Numbered from the stretch's first letter, positions 1-8,278 are shown. The stretch: 52,567 bases of DNA from Candidatus Uhrbacteria bacterium (GCA_016206155.1 JACQSC010000006.1:1-52567), one strand, 5' to 3'. The notes: generated by a model not told the origin, from the sequence alone. Made by a program: numbers and translations.

Positions 1-183
1 GGCATCATGTCTTGGATCATCAGAAAAGCCAGTTTCAATTAAAGCGGCTGCCCTTCTTTTTTCCTCAGCTTGCTCCGAGGTTAATCTTCCTGAAGCCTCC
101 ATTTTAACGAGCTCGTCATTTAGAGCTTTTTGAAATATATCCTTTGGCTGTTCTTGTGGTACTGGTGGTTGTTCAAAATTCAT
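1..183 (-). CDS. Hypothetical protein, 5' part only (MNFEQPPVPQEQPKDIFQKAL...); probable gene of a second integron cassette
   Basis: ATG at 183-181 with an open frame to the window edge. It follows an AT-rich leader that starts at the R' box of the attC-like site. Confidence 0.7.
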   Translation of the reverse strand, partial: MNFEQPPVPQEQPKDIFQKALNDELVKMEASGRLTSEQAEEKRRAAALIETGFSDDPRHDA

Positions 184-282
184 AGTTTTGTGTGATTAAT
201 TGATTATTATTTTCAAGTTATTCCGACCCCGAAAATTGCCAAAAAATTAAAATATAAATTGAGAGAGATTTTTGACTATTTC

Positions 283-409
283 CGATAACGTTCCTGCGTA
301 TGCGATGTTTGCCAGTGGTATAATTGCACGAAGTGCTTACCACTGGCAAATATGGGTGGAGGCTTGCGGAGGTACGGAGCAAGCCGTAACCGCATACGCA
401 GTGTTAGCT
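283..409 (-). mobile_element. attC-like recombination site
   Basis: Minus strand reads AGCTAAC-ac-TGCGTATGCG...CGCATACGCA-ggaac-GTTATCG (R''/R' boxes plus a 10-bp perfect inner stem at 295-304/391-400). The interior is branched, with hairpins at 308-320/338-350 and 361-367/379-385. Confidence 0.8.
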
Positions 410-478
410 GATGTATTCCTTTTCTTTTCCGACGATAGTCGGTTGTTTTAAAAATTTTCAAATTTCTTTTTCCGTTTT
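403..478. repeat. Left ~76-bp terminal inverted repeat of the 6-kb cassette (partner 6367-6443)
   Basis: GTTAGCT-gatg-TATTCCTTTTCTTTT-[CCGACGATAGTCGG]-TTGTTTTAAAAATTTTCAAATTTCTTTTTC aligns with the reverse complement of 6367-6443. Confidence 0.9.
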
Positions 479-591
479 GGGTGGCGGGCAGAGGGGAATT
501 AAAGGGGTGAATGCCCGCCACCCAAAACACTTATTCCTGGTTTGGGGAAGGGGCAAGAGGGGCTGGGGGTGAATTGCCCCTTCCCCAAACA
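474..591. repeat. Two tandem 17-bp perfect hairpins with related G-rich loops
   Basis: Arms at 474-490/512-528 and 540-556/575-591. Loops are GAGGGGAATTAAAGGGGTGAA and GAGGGGGCTGGGGGTGAA. Confidence 0.9.
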
Positions 592-593
592 TT

Positions 594-1562
594 TTATTCT
601 ACATCTTTTATTGATTGGAGGTCGATTTCCTTATTTCCAACCACGAGATTCTTTTTTGCAACCCATGTGAATCCTTTTTCTGGTGTGATAACAGCTACAT
701 CAACAGGACCGCCTACGCCTGGCATGTCGCCTGGGTCAAGGAGAATGCCGTCAGAAAATCTTTGTATAGCATTTGTTGTTTCGATTGATAGAACGCTAAA
801 ATCAATGCCATCTTGAAGAGTCATTGTTCCCCATTGAATATTATACTCTAGGGCTCCGAGTTGTTGTTTGACTCCTTGTTCTGTGAATTTTTGCGTAGCT
901 TCTTGTAGCATTGGAAGATTTCCCATCCGTGGGTCGAAGCCTAGGACGATTCTAGTCAAAACATCAGTTTGACCAATCCAACTAGCCCCATACTCTTTCC
1001 CTTTTTGTGTACTGTTTCTTAGCATTTCAACATCTCCAGGTACTGATACTTTGAAGGCTTGATGCGAATCATCACTGTTAAATCCTGAGACTATGAATTG
1101 TAGCTGATCGACATGTGCCATTCGTTCTTCTTCAATACCTTTTGGATTTTTGAATTTGAATTTTACTGCACCTTTTTCTTGTTTAATTTCTATGTCCTTA
1201 CAGCCTTGTCTTTCTAAATCAGCTCGAATTTGATCTGGTAACTTTTTTAGACCCTCTTTGTAATTGTACTTTTCTTCAAAGAAGTCTTGGAGTTTTTTGC
1301 TGATCTCTTCGATTGAGAGTTTTCGGATGTCGGCATGTTTTTTGAACTCTTCGATGAATCGGCTTACGTTTTTGAGCACGCCATTTTCTGGTAGAAAGGC
1401 CAGACCGGCGACTACTACTCCAACTTTTTTTCCGAGTTGAAATACTTTTGTTGCCGAGTCCGAGCCAATACGACTCATTCCTTTCATGTTTCTATAAGAT
1501 TGACGGCTATCAGCGGCTAATACCATTCCTTCAGGGGTGGTTGTGTTAATACAGAGACTCAT
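594..1562 (-). CDS. Proteasome-beta/HslV-like N-terminal-nucleophile (Ntn) hydrolase with Ser1
   Basis: N-terminus (M)SLCINTTTPEGMVLAADSR, downstream TKVF and VAG motifs, and C-terminal GGPVDVAVIT, all typical of the proteasome-type Ntn fold. Confidence 0.7.
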   Translation of the reverse strand: MSLCINTTTPEGMVLAADSRQSYRNMKGMSRIGSDSATKVFQLGKKVGVVVAGLAFLPENGVLKNVSRFIEEFKKHADIRKLSIEEISKKLQDFFEEKYNYKEGLKKLPDQIRADLERQGCKDIEIKQEKGAVKFKFKNPKGIEEERMAHVDQLQFIVSGFNSDDSHQAFKVSVPGDVEMLRNSTQKGKEYGASWIGQTDVLTRIVLGFDPRMGNLPMLQEATQKFTEQGVKQQLGALEYNIQWGTMTLQDGIDFSVLSIETTNAIQRFSDGILLDPGDMPGVGGPVDVAVITPEKGFTWVAKKNLVVGNKEIDLQSIKDVE

Positions 1563-1563
1563 A

Positions 1564-2199
1564 TTATTTTGATAGGTTAGTGATAATATAAATGGTGAAT
1601 AATAACGTACATGTTGCGATTATTGCCTTGTACTCTGGACCCATAAAAAATACGGAAGAGCCGAGTAAAACGATCGCACTTATTGTTAGTTCAGATTGCT
1701 TGTTTGCGGGGATATTTTTTAGGAGATCCAGTATCGGCGTTTTTTGGTGTGTGTACTTTTCTAAGGCAAGATTGATATAGCTCTGGACGATGTTTTGAAG
1801 TGTGTTGCTATCGAACTGTGTTCCCTCGATTTTAATCCTTGATTCGGCGTTATCCACACTATGGATTGGAGGAGTTAAGTTATTTTGGGGGCTACTTTCG
1901 CCCGTGAAGGTAAGGTTATTTGCAAATGATGTTTTGCTCGTATCGCCGACGATGGTATACGTTTCGAGTGGCTGTAATCCCAACTCTTTCAAAGCTCTAT
2001 AAGTCGGGATAACAGAACTGGTTTTAGCGCCTATTTGCGCAAGGTAGCCTTTCTTTACTAGCGATTCAATAGCCCTGAGAACGGAATTGTTGGCCGCCAC
2101 TTTAATTCCCTCAACCATTTCTCCCAATGTCGGAATAATGCCATTCTTTGCGTGGTATTTATGGATGAAAATAATTAGGTTTTTCTGATTCTCAGTCAT
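1564..2199 (-). CDS. LexA-type winged-helix DNA-binding protein with C-terminal transmembrane helices and no S24 peptidase domain
   Basis: MTENQKNLIIFIHKYHAKNGIIPTLGEMVEGIKVAANNSVLRAIESLVKKGYL matches the LexA DBD pattern, and there are two hydrophobic C-terminal segments. ATG 2199 is preferred over GTG 2223, which overlaps the predicted -10 region. Confidence 0.7.
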   Translation of the reverse strand: MTENQKNLIIFIHKYHAKNGIIPTLGEMVEGIKVAANNSVLRAIESLVKKGYLAQIGAKTSSVIPTYRALKELGLQPLETYTIVGDTSKTSFANNLTFTGESSPQNNLTPPIHSVDNAESRIKIEGTQFDSNTLQNIVQSYINLALEKYTHQKTPILDLLKNIPANKQSELTISAIVLLGSSVFFMGPEYKAIIATCTLLFTIYIITNLSK

Positions 2200-2221
2200 A
2201 ATGTCTTTTAAATCTGCATTC

Positions 2222-2251
2222 ACAATACACCGTTACTTTAGTAACGGTCAA
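2222..2251 (-). promoter_or_regulatory. Putative promoter (TTGACC-N18-TATTGT) overlapped by palindromic operator ACCGTTAC-N4-GTAACGGT
   Basis: Perfect 8-bp inverted repeat at 2229-2236/2241-2248, directly upstream of the LexA-like gene. Confidence 0.6.
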
Positions 2252-2260
2252 GTATTTTCC

Positions 2261-2269
2261 TGTGGATAA
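2261..2269 (-). promoter_or_regulatory. Perfect DnaA-box consensus (TTATCCACA)
   Basis: TGTGGATAA on the + strand in the res/LexA-like spacer. A second perfect copy lies at 1850-1858. Confidence 0.35.
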
Positions 2270-2281
2270 CTGAAAAATGGC

Positions 2282-4555
2282 TTATAAAGGCGTCAAATCC
2301 TTCAAAACCTCCTCCACATTCCCATTGTGCACCAAAAAGAAATGGAGTTTGCCCTTGCCGAGTTTTACCCATTCGTCGGCAATTTCTACTTTGTATCCGG
2401 TGTCCTCGTTGCTGATTCGGTCTTCGCCTTTCCATTCAAGGGCAACGATGTTTCCTTTTTTGGTGAGCCCAACAAAATCCGGGTAAAACTTGCCCTTTTT
2501 CCAGCCTTGAATAAAGAAAGGGTCTTGTTTTTCACGATTGCGAACCCAAAACTCAACATTCGGCAAGCTATCAAGGTCTAGACGTTCAACAAAACTCAAC
2601 TCCTCTTTGTTCAGCTTGTCGATTTTCTCGTAGTAATTTTTGTTGAACTCTTGCGGTATCTGCTCTTTGAGCGTGATTGTTTCCGGGAAGCTCTCAAATG
2701 TTTTGGTTGTAATCTTCTTTTTGGCTACAAGCTCGACAAAACGCTTTTTAGCATAGGCTTCAAGTACGCTGTTTATGGCCTCATTGAGTCGGTCGAGGAA
2801 TAAATACCGATTAACGGAAAGCTCAGCCAAAGATTTTTGCTTGAGTTGATAATCAACGGCTTTATCAATGAATTTTACCTTGTTCGGTTTATCGAGCAGG
2901 GTGAAGCGGAGCTTTTTATCAAGCCACTGCACCAACTCTTGTTTTGAAAAATTTTTGTCTCGGTAGGTTAGATTGAGAATTTGCTGTTTGCCTTTGTGCC
3001 ATTTGTTATCGTCTTCAATATCAATAATCGCTCGGCCGTCATTGTCGTAGTGGATTTCAAAGTCAAATTCGGCGTTTTGTTTTGCCAGTTCAAAATCTTC
3101 GCCAATCAGTTCCTCAAAAGTCAGTTTTTCGTCTTCCAAGCTCATCATCGGCACTGCAAAATCCTTTTTCACAGCGCGGTTTACTTCTTTTGGGTCTTTT
3201 GCGGTGTCTCCGTTTGATGAAGCGCCGATTAAATCCAGTTTACTGTATCCGTTTCTTTCCAGTCCTGAAATGATGTTGCTTGCCGCTTCATTGAAGTTTT
3301 TGGCGGAAGCAAAAATGTAAGAGCGGTTTAATGCCTCGTTTTTCTTTCGCTTGGCATACGGCATGCGAATAATACGCCCGATGATCTGCTCGACAGCAAT
3401 TTTTGCCCCGACATTGGCAACGGAAATGAGAACATAGGCAAAGGAACAGTCCCAACCCTCGGCGAGCGCACTAACGGTTATAATGTAGCGGATTTTGCAT
3501 TTTTTGCTGAACAAGTCTACGCCCTCAAGGTCGTTTCGGTCGGATGTTTTGATCGCAATTTCTTCTTCGGAGATTTTGGCGGAAAGCAAATACGCTTTGA
3601 TCTGTTCAACCGTCACGTTGTTTTGCGTTTTGCTCTTTGGCTGGGCTTGAATTAAAGCAATTGGACGGATATATTCGCCTGTATTTTTCTTGCCCTCTTT
3701 TTCAAGGTCGGCTCGTTTTTCAAGCCCGCGAGCAACGGCGTTTTGCCATTGGGCGGAGCTTTCAAGCACAAGCGGAATTTTTACCATTTGTTCGTCTTTG
3801 AGTTCAGCAGGGGAAATGTCCACCAAAATATTACTGCCGGAGCGTGGCGTTGCCGTGTATTCAATTACGAAACTTGGATTTAGGCTGTTGAGAAAATCTA
3901 TTGAAAGCTCGGTTTTGGTTTTATGCCCCTCATCAATCACCACAAGCGGATTACTCATACGGACGACATTTGCGAGCGAGTTTATGATTGTGCCTTCCTC
4001 GTCTTTTTCCAGATCGTCTCGGTCATCAAGGTTTTCAAAGTGGCTCAAGAGTGCGCCGTTTTCCTGATAGACTTTGTATTTCTTTTGGAGTGTTTTTTCT
4101 TTGCGGAAAGCCTCCAAGCTGGAAATGATAATGCAAAGATTGTCCTGAACATCCTCTTTTCTGATTCGTAATGCTTCCTCGTTTGAAAAAATACGTACGC
4201 CTTTTTGAAAAGCCTCGTCCAAAATCTGCCTGTGCCAGTCGTTACGGTCTTTAAACTTCTTGAGCGTTTGGGTTTTGATTGCCTCGGACGGCACAAACCA
4301 CATCACAATACCTCTATCCATTTTGTGCTTGAGGAAAGAGCGCATGATTTCGTTGACGGAATGACAGCCGACAAGCGTTTTTCCTCCGCCAGTCGGAATT
4401 TTGACGCAAACGAAAGGCACATCACCGAAAAAGTCGCCGTGATATGGCCGGTCAGTTTCGCCCATGAACGCATATTTTGGCCCGACGGCCTCTATGCCTT
4501 TGAGATAAGCCTTGAGCTTGTCTAGCGCTGATTGTTGATATTTTTTGAGTTCCAT
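2282..4555 (-). CDS. res: Type III restriction enzyme Res subunit (SF2 helicase plus PD-(D/E)XK nuclease)
   Basis: Motifs PTGGGKT, DEGH, TATP, AEGWD, QIIGRIIR and C-terminal FYPDF...LEWKG. Lies directly downstream of mod. Confidence 0.88.
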   Translation of the reverse strand: MELKKYQQSALDKLKAYLKGIEAVGPKYAFMGETDRPYHGDFFGDVPFVCVKIPTGGGKTLVGCHSVNEIMRSFLKHKMDRGIVMWFVPSEAIKTQTLKKFKDRNDWHRQILDEAFQKGVRIFSNEEALRIRKEDVQDNLCIIISSLEAFRKEKTLQKKYKVYQENGALLSHFENLDDRDDLEKDEEGTIINSLANVVRMSNPLVVIDEGHKTKTELSIDFLNSLNPSFVIEYTATPRSGSNILVDISPAELKDEQMVKIPLVLESSAQWQNAVARGLEKRADLEKEGKKNTGEYIRPIALIQAQPKSKTQNNVTVEQIKAYLLSAKISEEEIAIKTSDRNDLEGVDLFSKKCKIRYIITVSALAEGWDCSFAYVLISVANVGAKIAVEQIIGRIIRMPYAKRKKNEALNRSYIFASAKNFNEAASNIISGLERNGYSKLDLIGASSNGDTAKDPKEVNRAVKKDFAVPMMSLEDEKLTFEELIGEDFELAKQNAEFDFEIHYDNDGRAIIDIEDDNKWHKGKQQILNLTYRDKNFSKQELVQWLDKKLRFTLLDKPNKVKFIDKAVDYQLKQKSLAELSVNRYLFLDRLNEAINSVLEAYAKKRFVELVAKKKITTKTFESFPETITLKEQIPQEFNKNYYEKIDKLNKEELSFVERLDLDSLPNVEFWVRNREKQDPFFIQGWKKGKFYPDFVGLTKKGNIVALEWKGEDRISNEDTGYKVEIADEWVKLGKGKLHFFLVHNGNVEEVLKDLTPL

Positions 4556-4557
4556 AA

Positions 4558-6201
4558 TTAGTAGACTTTAACTTCGTAAGGAATTTGCTTGAAGATGATG
4601 CTGTGTTTCGCAAGTGTTGCCTCATCAAGCAAACATTTGTCGGCGTAAATTACTTTTGTGCCGTCGGTTTTTCGTAGCTTTTTCAAAAAGGATTTACTCA
4701 ATACATTTTCGCCCTTTTCTTTGTAGATCAGATAATACTCGGTTTCCGCATATTCGCCGATATAATTTCCCGATACTTTGGCAGGGTCTATGTTGGTTTG
4801 CGTTTCAGTAAAGTAAATGTAGGTTGCAAACTGGTCAAAGTCGCAAGTGTCCTCGATTTGACCTTCTTCATCAAAAAGTGGCTTGCTGAGTTCGCAATAC
4901 TCGAAGCCGTCGTCATATTTATTTTTCTGTATCGCATTTTTGATTCGGGTTGCCGTTATATCCTTCGCAATGTGATCTTCCATTTCAATAAGAATAAATT
5001 TTCTGGTTCCGCCGTCTTCCTTGTTTAAATCTAAAACTGCGTGACCTGTACTTCCAGAGCCAGCAAAAGAGTCTAAAATTATTTCATCTTCACCGCTTGT
5101 AGCAACCTTCAGAAGATGTTTAAGAAATGCGATTGGCTTTTTACCACTTCTAAAGTCAACACCACCTTCGTGTCGGCAATTACCAAAACTGTCTGCGAAA
5201 TTTTCAAAATTGACTATTGGAGCAAAGCGTTCGTTATCATCAGGATTTTCTAAAACTCTACTTGGTACGCCTTGATAGTACTTTCCTTTCGTTGCCCCGT
5301 CTCTTTTTGGGCCGGTGAAGTATCTATAATCAAACTGATCGTTCCCAATGCCGTAGACTTTATAGAGTACCCCAAGCCCATCCGCTTTGTATCTCCCAGC
5401 TAAATGATCTCTAAAGAAACGGCCTGATGAATTTATATCAAGAACTTTTCCAGTTGCCCAAATTTCCTTCAAACCTTTTTCTGATGGTTCGCCTTTTACG
5501 ATTTTGTAATCGTCTTTTTGAAAAATGGCGACTTTTTTCCCGCCCAAGTTTACAAATTTTGGCTCATTTATTTCTTCAATTTTCCAAATGAATTTATCAA
5601 GGCTGTAATCAATTTTTTGTTTGATTAATGTGGCTTTTGGGCTTTTTCTGTAAACCAAAGCAGTTTCAATAATTATTTGAAAGTCCGAATCTTCTACAAG
5701 TGTTTTTCCTGGATAGCGAACTTGATAGTAAAAGGGATACAAAAAATTTTCTTCACCGAAAATTTCGTCACACAATAGTTTTAAGGTTGACGCTTCGTTG
5801 TCATCTATACTTATAAAAATAAGACCATCTTCTCTCAAAAGTTCCCGTAGTAACTTTAGACGAGGATACATCATGCAAAGCCACTTGTCGTGTCTGCATA
5901 AATCTTCAGATTCTCTGCCCACGACTTTTCCAAGCCATTTCCGAATTTTTGGTGAATTTACTTTGTCATTATAAACCCACTGTTCGCTTCCTGTATTGTA
6001 TGGCGGATCAATGTAAATACATTTAACTTTGCCTGTATAATATGGCATTAGTGCTTTTAGGGCTTGCAGATTGTCGCCGTGCAAAATGAGATTTTGAGAA
6101 TTACCTACGGAAGCGGACTTAACTTTTTTGAGTAATCGAAAAGGAACCTCTTTGTCGTGGTTTACTACTGCTTCTTTTCCAATCCAGTTTAGTGTAGGCA
6201 T
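4558..6201 (-). CDS. mod: Type III R-M DNA adenine methyltransferase (Mod)
   Basis: GDNL...YIDPPYNTG (motif IV) precedes [10 protein letters not shown] (motif I), the beta-class order. Confidence 0.92.
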
Positions 6202-6255
6202 AAGCGTTTATCGTTTTTATTTCTGTTGTATTATAGCGCGTTAGCACTTCATATT

Positions 6256-6365
6256 AAATAAGGTTTTCGGAGCGACCAGCGGGAGCGGAGAAAACATCCT
6301 TATATTCCCCTCATCAAATAAATCGTTTCCGCAGTGTAGCGGAGGAAACACCATATTTCCCCTTA
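6256..6365. repeat. Two tandem imperfect hairpins, each followed by TATWTTCCCCT-like sequence
   Basis: AATAAGGTTTTC...GAAAACATCCTTATATT-CCCCT and AAATAAATCGTTTCCGC...GCGGAGGAAACACCATATTT-CCCCT. Confidence 0.6.
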
Positions 6366-6366
6366 T

Positions 6367-6443
6367 AAAATAGAAAAAGAAATTTGAAAATTTTTTAAAA
6401 CAAATGGGCGAAGCCCAAAAAGAAAAGGAATATTTTAGCTAAC
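6367..6443. repeat. Right ~77-bp terminal inverted repeat of the cassette (partner 403-478)
   Basis: Reverse complement is GTTAGCT-aaaa-TATTCCTTTTCTTTT-[TGGGCTTCGCCCA]-TTTGTTTTAAAAAATTTTCAAATTTCTTTTTC. Confidence 0.9.
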
Positions 6444-6460
6444 TCGTATTTATACGAAAT
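6432..6460 (-). mobile_element. attI-like site, crossover G|TTAGCT at 6443/6442
   Basis: Minus strand ATTTCGTATAA-ATACGAG-TTAGCTAAAAT has the TAA-N7-TTA simple-site geometry of attI1. It lies ~100 bp upstream of the divergent integrase. Confidence 0.7.
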
Positions 6461-6483
6461 AAGTGATAAAATATGATGAATAT

Positions 6484-6512
6484 TTGTACATTATCTGAAC
6501 TTATTGTATAAT
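6484..6512 (+). promoter_or_regulatory. Sigma70-type promoter for the integrase
   Basis: TTGTAC-N17-TATAAT, 30 bp before ATG 6543. Confidence 0.65.
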
Positions 6513-6542
6513 CATACTATTCGACATTAGCATCAATATATC

Positions 6543-7370
6543 ATGGATGATGCCAGCATACAACAGGCGCTCCGGCAGACCGATGACCTTCTACGATTAC
6601 GGAATTACAGCCGCAGGACGCGAGATGCGTACCAGAATTGTTTACGCGCCTACCTTCGTCACAAAGACGCATCAGCGCAGGTATGTAGTCCCGAGAATGT
6701 GGGAGCTTTTTTGATGGCTCTTTATGATCGCGGGGCGGCTTCGCAGACGGTTACGCTTCATTTTCATGCTATCCGTTTCTACTATCGCGACGTACTTGGA
6801 CAGACGGTTCATATTCCATGGAAAACACCCAAACGCCCACAACGCTTGCCAGTTATTCTTTCGCGCGATGAAGTCGAACACCTTCTTAGTGTTGTTAAAA
6901 ATAAAAAACATTATCTCGTCCTTGCGCTTTCCTACGGCGCCGGTTTGCGCGTCAGTGAAGCGATTAGTCTTCATGTAGGTGATATTGATCTCGATGAACT
7001 TGTTGTCACCATTCGACAATCAAAGGGGAGGAAAGATCGTCGTACCGTGTTGCCCGAGAAATTAAAAAACGATCTGCGCTCGCTGATAGCCGGACGTGAG
7101 TCACATGAATATCTTTTTGAAAGCAATCGCGGTGGGAAATTACATGAACGCAGTGCGCAAAAACTGTTTGATGATTCCCTGAAATCCTCGGGCATCAAAA
7201 AAGATGCCTCATTCCACTCCCTCCGACATTCATTCGCGACACATTTGCTGGAAAATGGCGTGGACGTTCGCTACGTGCAGGAGCTCCTCGGTCATGCGAA
7301 TATCCGCACGACGCAAATCTATACTCATCTTACGAATCCAGCATTGAAAAATATCAAAAGCCCGCTATGA
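6543..7370 (+). CDS. Integron-integrase-like tyrosine recombinase, short form without the I2 insertion
   Basis: SAM-like N-terminus (LRNYSRRT...Y), LPVILS, YGAGLRVSE, KGRKDR, HSLRHSFATHLLE, LLGH...TTQIYTH and C-terminal SPL. All catalytic R-K-H-R-H-Y residues are present. Confidence 0.88.
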   Translation: MDDASIQQALRQTDDLLRLRNYSRRTRDAYQNCLRAYLRHKDASAQVCSPENVGAFLMALYDRGAASQTVTLHFHAIRFYYRDVLGQTVHIPWKTPKRPQRLPVILSRDEVEHLLSVVKNKKHYLVLALSYGAGLRVSEAISLHVGDIDLDELVVTIRQSKGRKDRRTVLPEKLKNDLRSLIAGRESHEYLFESNRGGKLHERSAQKLFDDSLKSSGIKKDASFHSLRHSFATHLLENGVDVRYVQELLGHANIRTTQIYTHLTNPALKNIKSPL

Positions 7371-8278
7371 CGCACCGCATCATCTTTATGGGAACTCCCG
7401 ATTATGCAGCTCAATATCTTGAGGGATTGATTTTTTCTGGCTACAAACCGATTGCCGTTATCACCCAGCCGGATAGGCCAGCGGGGCGCGCGCAAACCGT
7501 TGAGGCAACGCCCGTAAAACGCACTGCAGAGAGAAATAATATTCCCGTCCATCAGCCAGAGGATATTCGCGATCCTCAATGGACAAAAAAGATTCAAGAA
7601 CTCAAACCCGACCTTATTGTTGTCGTAGCCTTTGGTCAAATCATTCCCCAATCAATCCTGACTATCCCGTCAAAAGGGTGTATCAATGTTCATCCCTCGC
7701 TCCTTCCCCGCCATCGCGGCGCAACGCCGTGGCAGGAAACAATTTTGCAGGGCGATGCAACAACCGGTGTCACCATTATGCTTATGGATGAGAAAATGGA
7801 TCACGGCCCGATTCTGTCACAAGAAGGGGTCGACGTCGCTCCTGACGAGACGACGAAATCGCTTGAGGACAAAACAGCCGCTATTGGCATTCCCCTTCTC
7901 ATCGGCACGCTTACGCGGTGGTTTGCGGGAACTGTCACCCCTGCAGAGCAACATCACGACCAGGCGACATATACACGACTGCTAAAAAAGGAATCGGGAC
8001 GAATTGATTGGTCAAAATGTCCCGTTGAGATCGATCGTATGATCCGTGCGCTCAACCCTTGGCCGGGCGCCTGGACCGAGTGGCATGGCAAGCGCATAAA
8101 AATTCTAAAAGCCCATCTCGATGAGCAGAACGATTTGATCGTCGATGAACTACAGCCGGAGGGGAAAAAATCAATGGATGCCAAAACCTTCAGGAATGGA
8201 TACTGTCAAGGCGCTCAGAAAGAACAGCCACTATCATCACTATTCCAATCCCAAGCGGATGGTTCAAGTAAGGAGTAA
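7367..8278 (+). CDS. fmt: Methionyl-tRNA formyltransferase
   Basis: IIFMGTPDYA, INVHPSLLPRHRGATP, MDHGPI, IRALNPWPGA. ATGA overlap with the integrase stop. Confidence 0.95.
   Translation: MTHRIIFMGTPDYAAQYLEGLIFSGYKPIAVITQPDRPAGRAQTVEATPVKRTAERNNIPVHQPEDIRDPQWTKKIQELKPDLIVVVAFGQIIPQSILTIPSKGCINVHPSLLPRHRGATPWQETILQGDATTGVTIMLMDEKMDHGPILSQEGVDVAPDETTKSLEDKTAAIGIPLLIGTLTRWFAGTVTPAEQHHDQATYTRLLKKESGRIDWSKCPVEIDRMIRALNPWPGAWTEWHGKRIKILKAHLDEQNDLIVDELQPEGKKSMDAKTFRNGYCQGAQKEQPLSSLFQSQADGSSKE

Follow-up and report, generated by a model that had tools for sequence, protein, structure and literature searches.

Long inverted repeats at the two ends of an integron-like gene cassette from a Candidatus Uhrbacteria genome would flank its attC site once the cassette is circularised

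The window analysed here is a whole stretch of 52,567 nucleotides from a Candidatus Uhrbacteria bacterium (GCA_016206155.1 JACQSC010000006.1:1-52567), in which a gene cassette of 6,154 bp (289-6442, - strand), bounded by long inverted arms, stands first in an integron-like array. Its cargo (594-6201, - strand) consists of type III-like restriction-modification genes, encoding an N6/N4 DNA methyltransferase (4558-6201) and a ResIII helicase-type restriction subunit (2282-4555), and of two ORFs, for a LexA-like winged-helix protein (1564-2223) and a protein of unknown family (594-1562), all on the - strand. About 30 bp upstream of the methyltransferase start lies a promoter-like site (TTAATA, 16-nt spacer, TATAAT; 6230-6257, - strand), assigned by consensus match only, at 10 of 12 positions. 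The cassette frame also contains untranslated modules. In the 3' module, two hairpins with 17-bp stems of 100% complementarity (474-490/512-528 and 540-556/574-590) carry loops sharing the conserved motif AGAGGGG..GGGGTGAAT; this module recurs at 3'-class ends of other loci, and its stems covary. On the 5' side, a top-strand AGGGGAA..GG(A/T)G motif stands before each of two hairpins, at 6263-6295 and 6325-6349 (- strand), and the region 6263-6349 is homologous to positions 1660-1717 of a second contig of the same genome (C1) and to 5'-class ends at other loci. The start of the next cassette (GTTATCGGAAATAGTC...; 1-288, - strand) belongs to a different arm family, and its ORF (183-1) continues past the contig end.

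The integrase of the window is encoded on the + strand and the cassettes on the - strand. An attI-like spacer (6444-6542), with the palindrome TCGTATTTATACGA right at the crossover, separates the first cassette from the gene of an IntI-like tyrosine recombinase of 275 aa (6543-7370, + strand), and junctions resembling ..CGCATA-AAA-nGA|GTTAGCT precede 5' arms beside recombinase genes at other loci. As in an integron array, the cassettes thus share one orientation and adjoin an insertion site and a recombinase gene that points the other way; the C1 array likewise lies entirely on the + strand. The recombinase scores 224.2 bits against TIGR02249, in two stretches and below the cut-off of 265. In the alignment to VchIntIA (2a3v), query residues 10-198 correspond to chain residues 6-199 and query residues 199-275 to chain residues 241-317; residues 200-240 of VchIntIA have no counterpart, and the IntI-specific additional domain around patch III is missing from this protein. 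This domain has been described as a defining characteristic of IntI, necessary for integron-mediated recombination (PMC9668308), and as essential for integron function (PMC8138268). Among the matches listed, orthologues of the recombinase were found in 21 of 120 loci; 18 of the 21 align in a single piece, from query position 20 or earlier through 274-275, and at 11 of these 21 loci the gene starts within about 320 bp of a 5' arm and points away from it, so that the array layout of the window recurs there.

The attC site of the cassette (282-409, - strand) runs on the top (-) strand from R'' AGCTAAC (complement of 403-409) to R' GTTATCGG (complement of 282-289), with the AAC..GTT pair at 287-405 and complementary inner arms, and the crossover G|TT probably falls between 289 and 288. 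Since the + strand is antisense to 4/4 cassette ORFs, it is by integron convention the bottom strand, as the earlier note had held. On this strand the core of about 121 nt has a predicted fold of -35.5 kcal/mol in which 3 nt bulge out beside the R box, and the R and L boxes pair in bottom-strand folds of attC sites. The GCAC-GAA-GTGC hairpin that had been reported from the attC interior was located at 327-337, where it caps one branch of the attC. A scan for attC-type sites with AAC..GTT returned the window site (287-405) together with C1 11-139, 4549-4675, 5421-5547 and 7356-7482; two more C1 sites (~1400-1597 and ~4425-4520) were read by eye. The window attC is homologous to that of the C1 cassette and has no match in Rfam.

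The earlier note had described inverted repeats at the cassette ends with a different small hairpin at the same site in each arm, a description that is borne out. When the inverted repeats in positions 1-8000 of the window are ranked, the longest pair joins 446-478 with 6367-6399 (33 nt, 91% complementary) and the second joins 403-428 with 6418-6443 (26 nt, 88%), against 22-28 nt at 70-86% for the next-best long-range pairs. The 3' arm (403-478, + strand, reading inward on the bottom strand) comprises block A with the R box (403-428), the mini-hairpin CCGAC-GATA-GTCGG (429-442) and block B (443-478). Correspondingly, the 5' arm (6367-6443, - strand, reading inward on the top strand) comprises block A with the R box (6418-6443), a mini-hairpin (6405-6417) that reads TGGGC-TTC-GCCCA on the - strand and TGGGC-GAA-GCCCA on the + strand, and block B (6367-6403). 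The R-box heptamer opens both arms, as GTTAGCT at 403-409 and AGCTAAC at 6437-6443. The first 76-130 nt of the cassette thus form the inverted complement of the 76-130 nt ahead of its attC. The repeats are not due to chance, since both ends recur in C1 around different cargo; the two 76-base repeats match each other as the ends of one mobile gene cassette, and they would flank its attC once the cassette is circularised.

In C1, the same arms bound a second cassette, within an array in which everything lies on the + strand: C1:1589-1717 matches the window end at 85% over 124 nt (E 3e-34) and C1:4300-4476 at 77% over 183 nt (E 1.7e-33). In both the window and C1, neighbouring cassettes begin with other sequences, and two cassettes of the same array, with another attC type, lack terminal repeats of this kind, so that the arms are not obligatory. 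The 28/29-nt arm core was found in at least 120 public contigs, mostly from Patescibacteria, and the arm design is common to many cassettes of tiny groundwater bacteria; of 401 genomes drawn from the whole phylum, 8 contain the core pattern and 0 the reversed pattern used as control, and a search of 2.9 million viral contigs with the arms gave 0 matches. Contigs of four groundwater runs place this arm or this attC among other neighbours, the similarity breaking off at the R boxes (6443/6444 and 285), and no circle junction or empty site was seen among the assembled contigs. The differing starts of neighbouring cassettes and these other contexts support the view that the arms belong to the cassette and travel with it, without regard to array position. 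The copies elsewhere comprise 67 3'-class arms (GATGTA) and 64 5'-class arms (GAAATA). Convergent arm pairs unite one arm of each class in 31 of 44 instances, the longest ORF runs from the 5' arm to the 3' arm in 30 of the 31 complete cassettes, giving a fixed polarity, and the cargo of the other cassettes is rich in restriction-modification and defence genes, all frequencies being biased in a set collected around one arm family.

Beyond this family, terminal repeats, counted where the end complementarity score reached at least 20 beyond a 13-nt signature, were present in 48 of 70 signature-delimited cassettes and represent 18 unrelated arm families. The remaining 22 have no extended repeat; the signature occurs 23 times in the genome against 13 times in a shuffled genome, so some of these 22 are chance matches. 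In a swap test, the own 3' arm outscored every partner from another family for 47 of 48 5' arms, with medians of 34.5 for the own partner and 19.5 for the best cross-family partner and a cross-family mean of 12.7; at the level of families, the two ends covary. The layout of block A, divergent insert and block B likewise recurs with unrelated sequences. In alignments of the main family (fam1), the C1:137-1407 cassette, L023, L134, L147 and L048, the insert begins about 24-28 nt from the crossover; in several families it forms a hairpin, and in the L138 and L075 families the repeat is continuous and has none.

Within fam1, the arms are near-invariant, and single changes, for instance TTTTCAAA to TTTTAAAA in one arm only, are uncompensated in the partner, which points to a sequence-specific constraint beyond pairing. 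The signature is kept in fam1 as GAAATA (5') versus GATGTA (3'), the window 5' arm reading AAAATA, while in the other families its presence follows by construction from the search pattern. At positions 10-11 it leaves two neighbouring bases mismatched in a conserved way: the bottom strand has T.T and G.T there, the top strand A.A and A.C. Isolated mismatches in fam1 (4 bottom-type, 5 top-type, 14 transversions) reveal no wobble bias; in other families they number only 6 vs 0, and a cruder mismatch count is flat (63 vs 57; 51 vs 51). For 36 of 49 cassettes, the calculated stability of the arm duplex is higher on the bottom strand.

The mini-hairpins are conserved in structure and divergent in sequence, as had been proposed. 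There are 26 distinct inserts in the 5' arms and 31 in the 3' arms, folding with at least 4 bp in 61/64 and 62/67 arms, respectively, and their stems covary: at least four types of stem achieve pairing with different bases (CCGAC/GTCGG, GTTTTCT/AGAAAAC, GTCCCGCC/GGCGGGAC and TGGGC/GCCCA). The claim that both arms carry G..A loops on the bottom strand was upheld in 57 of 64 5' arms and 37 of 67 3' arms, and the mirror form TATC was found in 1 of 67 3' arms; because the G..A loops lie on the same strand in both arms, the symmetry of the inverted repeat is broken in a strand-consistent manner. Both d(GCGAAGC) and d(cGNNAg) are exceptionally stable DNA mini-hairpins. The former occurs in the window at 6408-6414 (+ strand), and c-GATA-g or related G-N-N-A loops account for the bottom-strand loops of the 57 5' arms. 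About one-third of the 3' arms deviate, with other loops (AGCA in 15/67) or T.A closing pairs.

When the two ends were joined in silico, the predicted fold agreed with the geometry anticipated in the earlier note: on both strands, the attC stem continues as one stem through the R box for about 26 bp to a four-way junction, formed by the two mini-hairpins about 27 nt outside the crossover, and then for about 30 bp more. The 335-nt joined fold is calculated at -94.6 kcal/mol for the bottom strand and -87.4 kcal/mol for the top strand. Modelled R-box pairing in the single-stranded circle is 0.987 when the 5' arm is native and 0.982 when it is shuffled, and the top strand gives 0.93; in the model, pairing of the R box does not need the arms, which would count against a simple stabilising role. 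The suggestion that the extension helps very long cassettes in particular found no support, as arms occur on cassettes of 295 to 5,673 bp. The median length is 2,209 bp for cassettes that have arms and 2,014 bp for those that lack them (Mann-Whitney p 0.32), and the link of arms to cassette length is weak (Spearman 0.28, p 0.017).

Among known systems, integron cassettes with their attC sites (59-base elements) share with this locus an imperfect palindrome, R''/L''-L'/R' boxes, AAC..GTT triplets and cassettes of one orientation that adjoin an attI-like site and a divergently encoded tyrosine recombinase. As in integrons, the cassette start complements its own R'' box, so that only excision into a circle makes the site complete, and a bottom-strand function of this attC is suggested. 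In known integron cassettes, however, the complementarity between the start and R'' is a 7-bp box, whereas here it extends over 76-130 nt and includes a four-way junction. The folded site would span 270-335 nt, compared with the 57-141 bp given for known attC sites in a passage of PMC5371416. Further differences are the conserved T.T/G.T mismatch and the recombinase without the IntI-specific domain. The forked-hairpin attP of the CTX phage, which belongs to a single-stranded genome and is recombined by XerCD at dif, is similar in that inverted stretches of one strand pair into a substrate for an Xer-type tyrosine recombinase in the single-stranded form only; it differs in being part of a phage genome, with no array, attC-like L/R boxes or paired mini-hairpins. 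The pdif sites of Acinetobacter plasmids are duplexes of 28 bp with an 11-6-11 layout. They enclose gene modules between oppositely oriented sites for Xer-family recombinases, whereas the present cassettes have a folded attC, long arms and an IntI-like enzyme.

We infer, with roughly even confidence, that each repeat is one half of an extension of the attC palindrome, an extension that the cassette itself carries and that comes together in the excised circle alone. On the chromosome the arms stand 6 kb apart, each beside unrelated neighbours; excision as a circle would join them around the reconstituted attC and turn a site of about 120 nt into an imperfect hairpin of 270-335 nt, or into a cruciform in a double-stranded circle. 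The working form would be the bottom strand of that circle in its folded state, or else an extruded cruciform. Beyond stabilising R-box pairing, the long duplex and its junction may offer a recognition or architectural platform to the recombinase, and the reader of such a platform would be an enzyme lacking the domain with which canonical IntI recognises bases that stand out of the helix.

The same ends could instead act as expression insulators, although this appears unlikely. Inward-facing hairpins followed by T-runs would serve as terminators that keep transcription from entering, on either side, a restriction-modification or defence cassette that regulates itself, and the rest would be shared untranslated sequence with symmetry as a by-product. 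A consensus scan, informative about consensus only, does find both mini-hairpins terminator-like, with a G+C-rich hairpin and a T-run pointing inward (429-442 then TTGTTTT on the + strand; 6417-6405 then TTTGTTTT on the - strand); the promoter-like site lies downstream of the 5' arm, and restriction-modification and defence genes are frequent in the cargo. However, insulation accounts for about 25 nt of a 76-130-nt repeat and leaves the mirrored block A, the R box, block B and the own-end complementarity of 18 unrelated arm families unexplained. The L138 and L075 repeats have no hairpin, and the conserved loop letters agree on one physical strand, a feature for which a terminator has no need. 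In arrays whose genes all run the same way, moreover, there is little transcription for a terminator facing antisense at the 3' end to stop.

Comparably improbable is a role as double-stranded binding sites, in which the arms would be bound as duplex by the recombinase, as accessory sites, or by a host architectural protein, the symmetry reflecting two copies of one binding platform as in transposon terminal repeats or phage attP arm sites. The near-invariance of fam1 arms in many genomes whose neighbouring stems have diverged through compensatory changes, the uncompensated single-arm changes, phased A/T tracts that suggest bent DNA on direct sequence reading, and a signature beside the crossover common to all families (by construction outside fam1) speak for this reading. 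Against it, one array with one IntI-like recombinase holds unrelated arm sequences, which makes a binder specific to sequence family by family unlikely. The loops also lack mirror symmetry, and the 3' arm is never a lone duplex site, since it always abuts its attC, with a conserved attC motif at most 45 nt away in 47 of 67 copies.

Quite improbable, in turn, is that the repeats are a neutral relic of cassette origin or of the recent spread of one frame, with no present function. The 22 of 70 cassettes without repeats, the independence of modelled R-box pairing from the arms and a patchy distribution that fits recent horizontal spread are compatible with a relic; but mini-hairpins and large hairpins next to the arms changed by compensation while the arms stayed complementary, the trait was kept independently in 18 families, and the insert starts about 24-28 nt from the crossover in several families. 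There is little more than a slim chance that the arms, standing in the 5' and 3' untranslated ends of a putative operon-sized transcript, pair in the cassette mRNA as an RNA panhandle, a processing stem or protective duplex that would release or stabilise a cassette-specific transcript. The top strand is predicted to form the same long stem with high R-box pairing, but the signature there gives A.A plus A.C rather than T.T plus G.T, the sense-RNA loops read UAUC and the G..A forms lie on the other strand, and the pairing takes in the R box and ends at the crossover, a landmark of DNA recombination; the region was found in no RNA run. An independent transposon or MITE whose terminal inverted repeats came to lie in an integron by chance would explain why a mobile unit present in many genomes has inverted repeats at its ends and a cargo that varies, but is extremely improbable given the absence of target-site duplications (the 5-nt outer flanks of 31 cassettes differ), the asymmetric flanks (the same attC type on the 3' side in 47/67 copies, 57 distinct 12-mers among 64 on the 5' side), a repeat start exactly at the site-specific crossover, two ends of consistently different class and fixed polarity, and the lack of a transposase in the window cargo, the C1 cargo or the 25 most frequent of 59 families (57 other cargo ORFs). 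The earlier note would have counted against its reading other cassettes of the array without repeats, together with no effect of repeat deletion, or else target-site duplications; two cassettes without repeats were found and target-site duplications were not.

These elements may, as a tentative and on balance doubtful possibility, represent a distinct integron lineage, widespread in Patescibacteria and also present in MAGs labelled DPANN or other archaea, in which a recombinase without the IntI-specific domain would read an enlarged cassette-encoded site. This site would consist of a 13-nt R arm with a fixed T.T/G.T strand mark, about 13 bp of duplex, a four-way junction built from two stable mini-hairpins and a second duplex. 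As such a site would exist only in the excised circle, the circle would be, if this is true, a dedicated structured recombination intermediate.

The window covers the initial 52.6 kb of contig C3 in a 914-kb genome of 10 contigs, and its cassette spans 289–6442 (6,154 bp) when the crossover is taken at G|TT. The inverted repeats that the earlier note had described at the cassette ends were recovered: 446–478 is 91% complementary to 6367–6399 over 33 nt and 403–428 is 88% complementary to 6418–6443 over 26 nt, both blocks topping the ranking by length among inverted repeats of window positions 1–8000. Either arm (5' arm, 6367–6443; 3' arm, 403–478) is opened by the heptamer GTTAGCT/AGCTAAC and holds its own hairpin at the same position between the blocks, CCGAC-GATA-GTCGG (429–442) or TGGGC-GAA-GCCCA (6405–6417). 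The third loop reported earlier, GCAC-GAA-GTGC (327–337), caps a branch of the palindrome 282–409, where attC anatomy is present. At the gathering threshold, zero Rfam families were matched in the window. All four ORFs between the repeats lie on the − strand, and the + strand is therefore the bottom strand in integron terms. These ORFs encode a methyltransferase (4558–6201), a ResIII helicase-type subunit (2282–4555), a LexA-like winged-helix protein (1564–2223) and, last, a 322-aa product without assigned family (594–1562); the latter matched no Pfam family, and weak NCBIfam hits against proteasome subunits (E 7e-4 and 7e-3) hint at a possible Ntn-hydrolase-like fold.

Joining the two ends in silico produced a single stem comprising attC, the R box, 26 bp, a four-way junction with two mini-hairpins and a further ~30 bp, so that the extended attC geometry proposed earlier stands. 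This 335-nt fold reached −94.6 kcal/mol on the bottom strand versus −87.4 kcal/mol on the top strand. Conservation of mini-hairpin structure despite divergent sequence was found to hold widely, stems of 4 bp or more forming in 61 of the 64 5' arms and in 62 of the 67 3' arms, built from 26 and 31 distinct inserts, respectively; on homologous ends, the proposed covariation check returned at least four stem types, paired through different letters. The loop form described earlier for the three hairpins of the window, GNA or GNNA on the + strand, recurs in both arms: bottom-strand loops are G-N-N-A in 57 of 64 5' arms (GATA in 49), and the 67 3' arms have GATA 30 times, GAA 5, GGTA 2 and AGCA 15, with the mirror TATC once. 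The mini-hairpin loops break mirror symmetry. In addition, an invariant difference between the arms, GAAATA versus GATGTA, places T·T and G·T mismatches on the bottom strand and A·A and A·C on the top strand, the window 5' arm itself reading AAAATA, not GAAATA. In 36 of 49 cassettes, the bottom-strand arm duplex is the more stable one, with a mean gain of 1.05 kcal/mol. Wobble-bias tests, being flat or too small, did not name the working strand: bias was absent from the main arm family (fam1, which includes the window arms; 4 bottom-type and 5 top-type changes, 14 transversions) and weak outside it (6 versus 0), and G·T pairs in mini-hairpin stems, counted on distinct inserts, numbered 2 on the bottom and 1 on the top strand for 5' arms and 2 and 3, respectively, for 3' arms.

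The observation was also found to extend beyond one sequence family. In the same genome, contig C1 begins with a + strand array in which a scan placed attC sites at 11–139, 4549–4675, 5421–5547 and 7356–7482, and two more (~1400–1597 and ~4425–4520) were spotted by eye. The C1 cassette at ~1590–4520, carrying another methyltransferase and four small ORFs, repeats the window 5' end (C1:1589–1717, 85% over 124 nt) and the window 3' end plus attC (C1:4300–4476, 77% over 183 nt), with mini-hairpins that differ once more (TTGGGC-TATC-GCCCAA and GTTTTCT-GATA-AGAAAAC). Furthermore, the cassette at C1:137–1407 (locus L017), which encodes a 381-aa ORF matching no Pfam family, has terminal repeats that are unrelated in sequence and identical in layout (block, mini-hairpin, block). 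Its arms read TTATCGGA(AA|TG)TAATTAAAAGTTT, continue with a hairpin (TTCCGCC-TTC-GGCGGA in one, TTTTGCC-GATTA-GGCAAAA in the other) and a 33-nt block, and score 46 for complementarity against 12 ± 2 for shuffles. The earlier note had named array cassettes lacking such repeats as evidence against its reading if deleting the repeats also had no effect; as to the first half of that condition, the array was divided: terminal repeats are absent from the C1 cassettes 4674–5423 and 5546–7358, which have another attC type, and present in C1:137–1407. Two side observations concern this genome. Between two attC sites of the same locus lies a cargo-less mini-cassette of 33 bp (C1:4518–4551), in which a 12-bp inverted repeat, TTATTCAAAATC/GATTTTGAATAA, surrounds a short loop, these arms falling inside a score-13 alignment. 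A lone 22-nt match to the R-box signature, GTGTTAGCCGATGTATTCCTT, occurs on contig C9 (143059–143080; L018 2059–2080), just past a gene stop codon and distant from the arrays, and may represent either a relic or a secondary site.

Loci were collected by the fam1 core, a 28/29-nt arm stretch, and cassettes of at least 260 bp were delimited by a signature (start GTT[AG]NNNGAAAT[AG], end [CT]ACATCNNN[CT]AAC). This yielded 70 cassettes with a signature that also matches by chance (23 matches in the genome versus 13 in a shuffled genome); 48 of them, representing 18 arm families, showed an end complementarity score of at least 20 beyond the signature. The cassette's own 3' arm beat every 3' arm from another family in 47 cases out of 48 (median 34.5, versus 19.5 for the best cross-family partner and 12.7 for the cross-family mean). 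Alignments revealed a recurring plan of block A, a divergent insert (in several families folding as a hairpin in each arm) and block B, the insert beginning by alignment reading ~24–28 nt from the crossover in fam1, in the C1:137–1407 cassette and in families L023, L134, L147 and L048; an unbroken repeat of ~50 nt is seen instead in L138 and L075. Beside the crossover, all arm families have a 13-nt signature (window 403–415 and 6431–6443), which reads GTTnnnnGAAATA where cassettes start and TACATCnnnnAAC ahead of attC and which, outside fam1, follows from the pattern used to delimit cassettes. An AGAGGGG-(A/T-rich)-GG(GG)TG motif, found in the window at 491–511, 557–573, 6296–6324 and 6350–6366, is likewise common to all arm families, no other element of the cassette frame being shared as widely; it sits in large-hairpin loops at the 3' end and immediately ahead of a hairpin at the 5' end. 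In L122 (~648–722) and L134 (~3335–3409), an extra insertion lies inside the 5'-arm mini-hairpin loop, e.g. GGGCTAT[CCCTCCAGAGGCGGGCAG]GCGCCCAA, making the loop look like a site of insertion.

The core matched at least 120 stretches in a collection of species-representative genomes, and among the matches listed most titles name Patescibacteria, spread over many classes. A few metagenome-assembled genomes (MAGs) are labelled Woesearchaeota, Altarchaeum, Methanoregula, Methanosarcinales, Omnitrophota or Gammaproteobacteria, labels that may be wrong for short binned contigs. Exact core matches occur in L020, L034, L078 and L098, from MAGs labelled Woesearchaeota, Altarchaeum, Methanosarcinales and Methanoregula, and L034 additionally carries a recombinase orthologue (42% identity); these archaeal-labelled arms reflect either cross-domain spread or mis-binned contigs. 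In an even sampling of the phylum, the core was present in 8 of 401 genomes and the reversed pattern in 0, and a search of viral contigs with the arm core gave 0 matches.

Arm copies sort into two classes. Members of the 5' class come after an upstream attC or an attI-like junction and read GTTAGCT-GAAATATTCCTTTTCTTTT, hairpin, core, AT-rich stretch containing AGGGGAA..GGTG, and a further hairpin. Those of the 3' class, in the inward direction, come after the conserved attC and read GTTAGCT-GATGTATTCCTTTTCTTTT, hairpin, core, and a large hairpin whose loop is AGAGGGG..GGGGTGAAT. Among 44 convergent arm pairs, 31 combine a 5' and a 3' arm, 12 include an unclassified arm and one consists of two 3' arms. 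The 31 complete cassettes measure 673–5,967 bp, and in 30 of them the longest ORF runs from the 5' to the 3' arm; in the exception, L057 (1846–4972), long ORFs of 496, 317 and 139 aa are antisense to arm polarity. Restriction-modification and defence functions are frequent among the 57 cargo ORFs (N6_Mtase 4, C5 methylase 3, Eco57I 3; HpaII, GmrSD, AAA_13 and AAA_21 2 each; HaeIII, TdeIII and RloB 1 each), alongside polyprenyl synthetase, subtilase, transporters and HisG.

Divergent from the window cassette lies a tyrosine recombinase gene (6543–7370, 275 aa), whose stop overlaps the start of fmt (7367–8278), a housekeeping neighbourhood; a distinct XerC/D-like gene is present on C9. The top family for the recombinase is the integron integrase TIGR02249, with a match split into two stretches that scores 224 bits, below the cut-off of 265. 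Residues 200–240 of VchIntIA (2a3v), the IntI-specific insertion of ~41 residues, have no match in it. This additional domain has been described as a defining IntI characteristic necessary for integron-mediated recombination (PMC9668308), and elsewhere as essential for integron function, yet incompletely conserved in an integron-like subgroup; the same study recognizes a 'Cand' group of Xer-related recombinases of candidate phyla (PMC8138268). Cassettes of other genomes are also flanked by insertion-less orthologues. Orthologues were found at 21 of the 120 loci listed (20 at 33–56% identity, plus a 93-residue fragment at 74%); 18 align in one piece from query position 20 or earlier through 274–275. 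At 11 of the loci listed, the recombinase gene starts within ~320 bp of the 5' arm and is divergent, as in the window.

The arms would thus constitute a cassette-encoded extension of the recombination site, because the ends are kept complementary in many unrelated families and meet solely once the cassette is excised as a circle, on either side of the restored attC. A role as a recognition or architectural platform is suggested by the mismatch being fixed, by a four-way junction whose distance hardly varies across several families and by the lack of an IntI domain. The fam1 arms are nearly invariant, and changes in one arm are uncompensated in its partner; therefore sequence, besides pairing, seems constrained. 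On physical grounds, lengthening the palindrome would also make it easier for a supercoiled circle to extrude a cruciform. A platform or cruciform role fits better than bare stabilization of the R box, whose pairing probability in a partition-function model was 0.987 with native arms and 0.982 with a shuffled 5' arm, falling to 0.38 in the array context with the neighbour's non-matching R' box. The suggested aid to very long cassettes fared poorly: the correlation with length was weak (Spearman 0.28, p 0.017), median length was 2,209 bp with arms versus 2,014 bp without them (p 0.32), and arms are found even on a 295-bp cassette. Membership of an independent transposon was rejected, since no target duplication occurs at the outer flanks of the 31 cassettes, similarity begins at the crossover, no transposase was found (window cargo, C1 cargo and the 25 most frequent families of other cargoes), and the flanks are asymmetric, with the same attC type outside 47 of 67 3' arms and 57 distinct 12-mers outside 64 5' arms, 31 of which are preceded by AAC. 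An inversion switch between inverted R boxes is contradicted by the fixed orientation of the longest ORF relative to arm classes in 30 of 31 cassettes. A single-strand promoter rebuilt by arm pairing was discarded, the sole −10-like element lying outside the repeat and missing from the 3' arm, as was the idea that the 5' module encodes a leader peptide (the window has a 37-codon frame there), since many copies lack an ATG and stem changes are compensatory and non-synonymous. Both mini-hairpins passed a terminator scan and face inward.

A look through sequencing runs for the region listed none from RNA. Excision products were sought in Logan contigs of four groundwater DNA sequencing runs (X1–X4), where neither the circle junction (6442 joined to 289) nor the empty site (288 joined to 6443) was found. 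A joint of 429 to 6418 occurred in a single contig from X2 and another from X4, the shorter side spanning just 26 letters; it was put down to an artefact (repeat or fold-back) or to a different organism. Elsewhere in the contigs of the four runs, the same arm or attC stands among different neighbours, the breaks falling at 6443/6444 and 285. For three of these runs (X2–X4), the summed contig depth of the arms (attC plus 3' arm, 255–508) is 5–7 times that of neighbouring cargo, consistent with a community in which the frame has many copies.

Integron recombination is a textbook case of a structure-specific single-stranded DNA site, with known rules that include a 7-bp R box and extrahelical bases. 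Known attC sites measure 57–141 bp (PMC5371416). In the open-access literature searched, no description was found of cassette-terminal repeats, attC four-way junctions or candidate-phyla integrons. Altogether, the present system keeps the cassette logic and breaks two integron rules, through a site made approximately threefold longer by cassette-end sequences and an enzyme without the IntI domain. Tools that demand this domain may miss such arrays or class them as integrase-less. A natural system of this kind makes testable the shape of the excised circle, as well as strand and partner choice without an IntI domain. Its cassette frame moves restriction-modification and defence genes among very different ultra-small bacteria.
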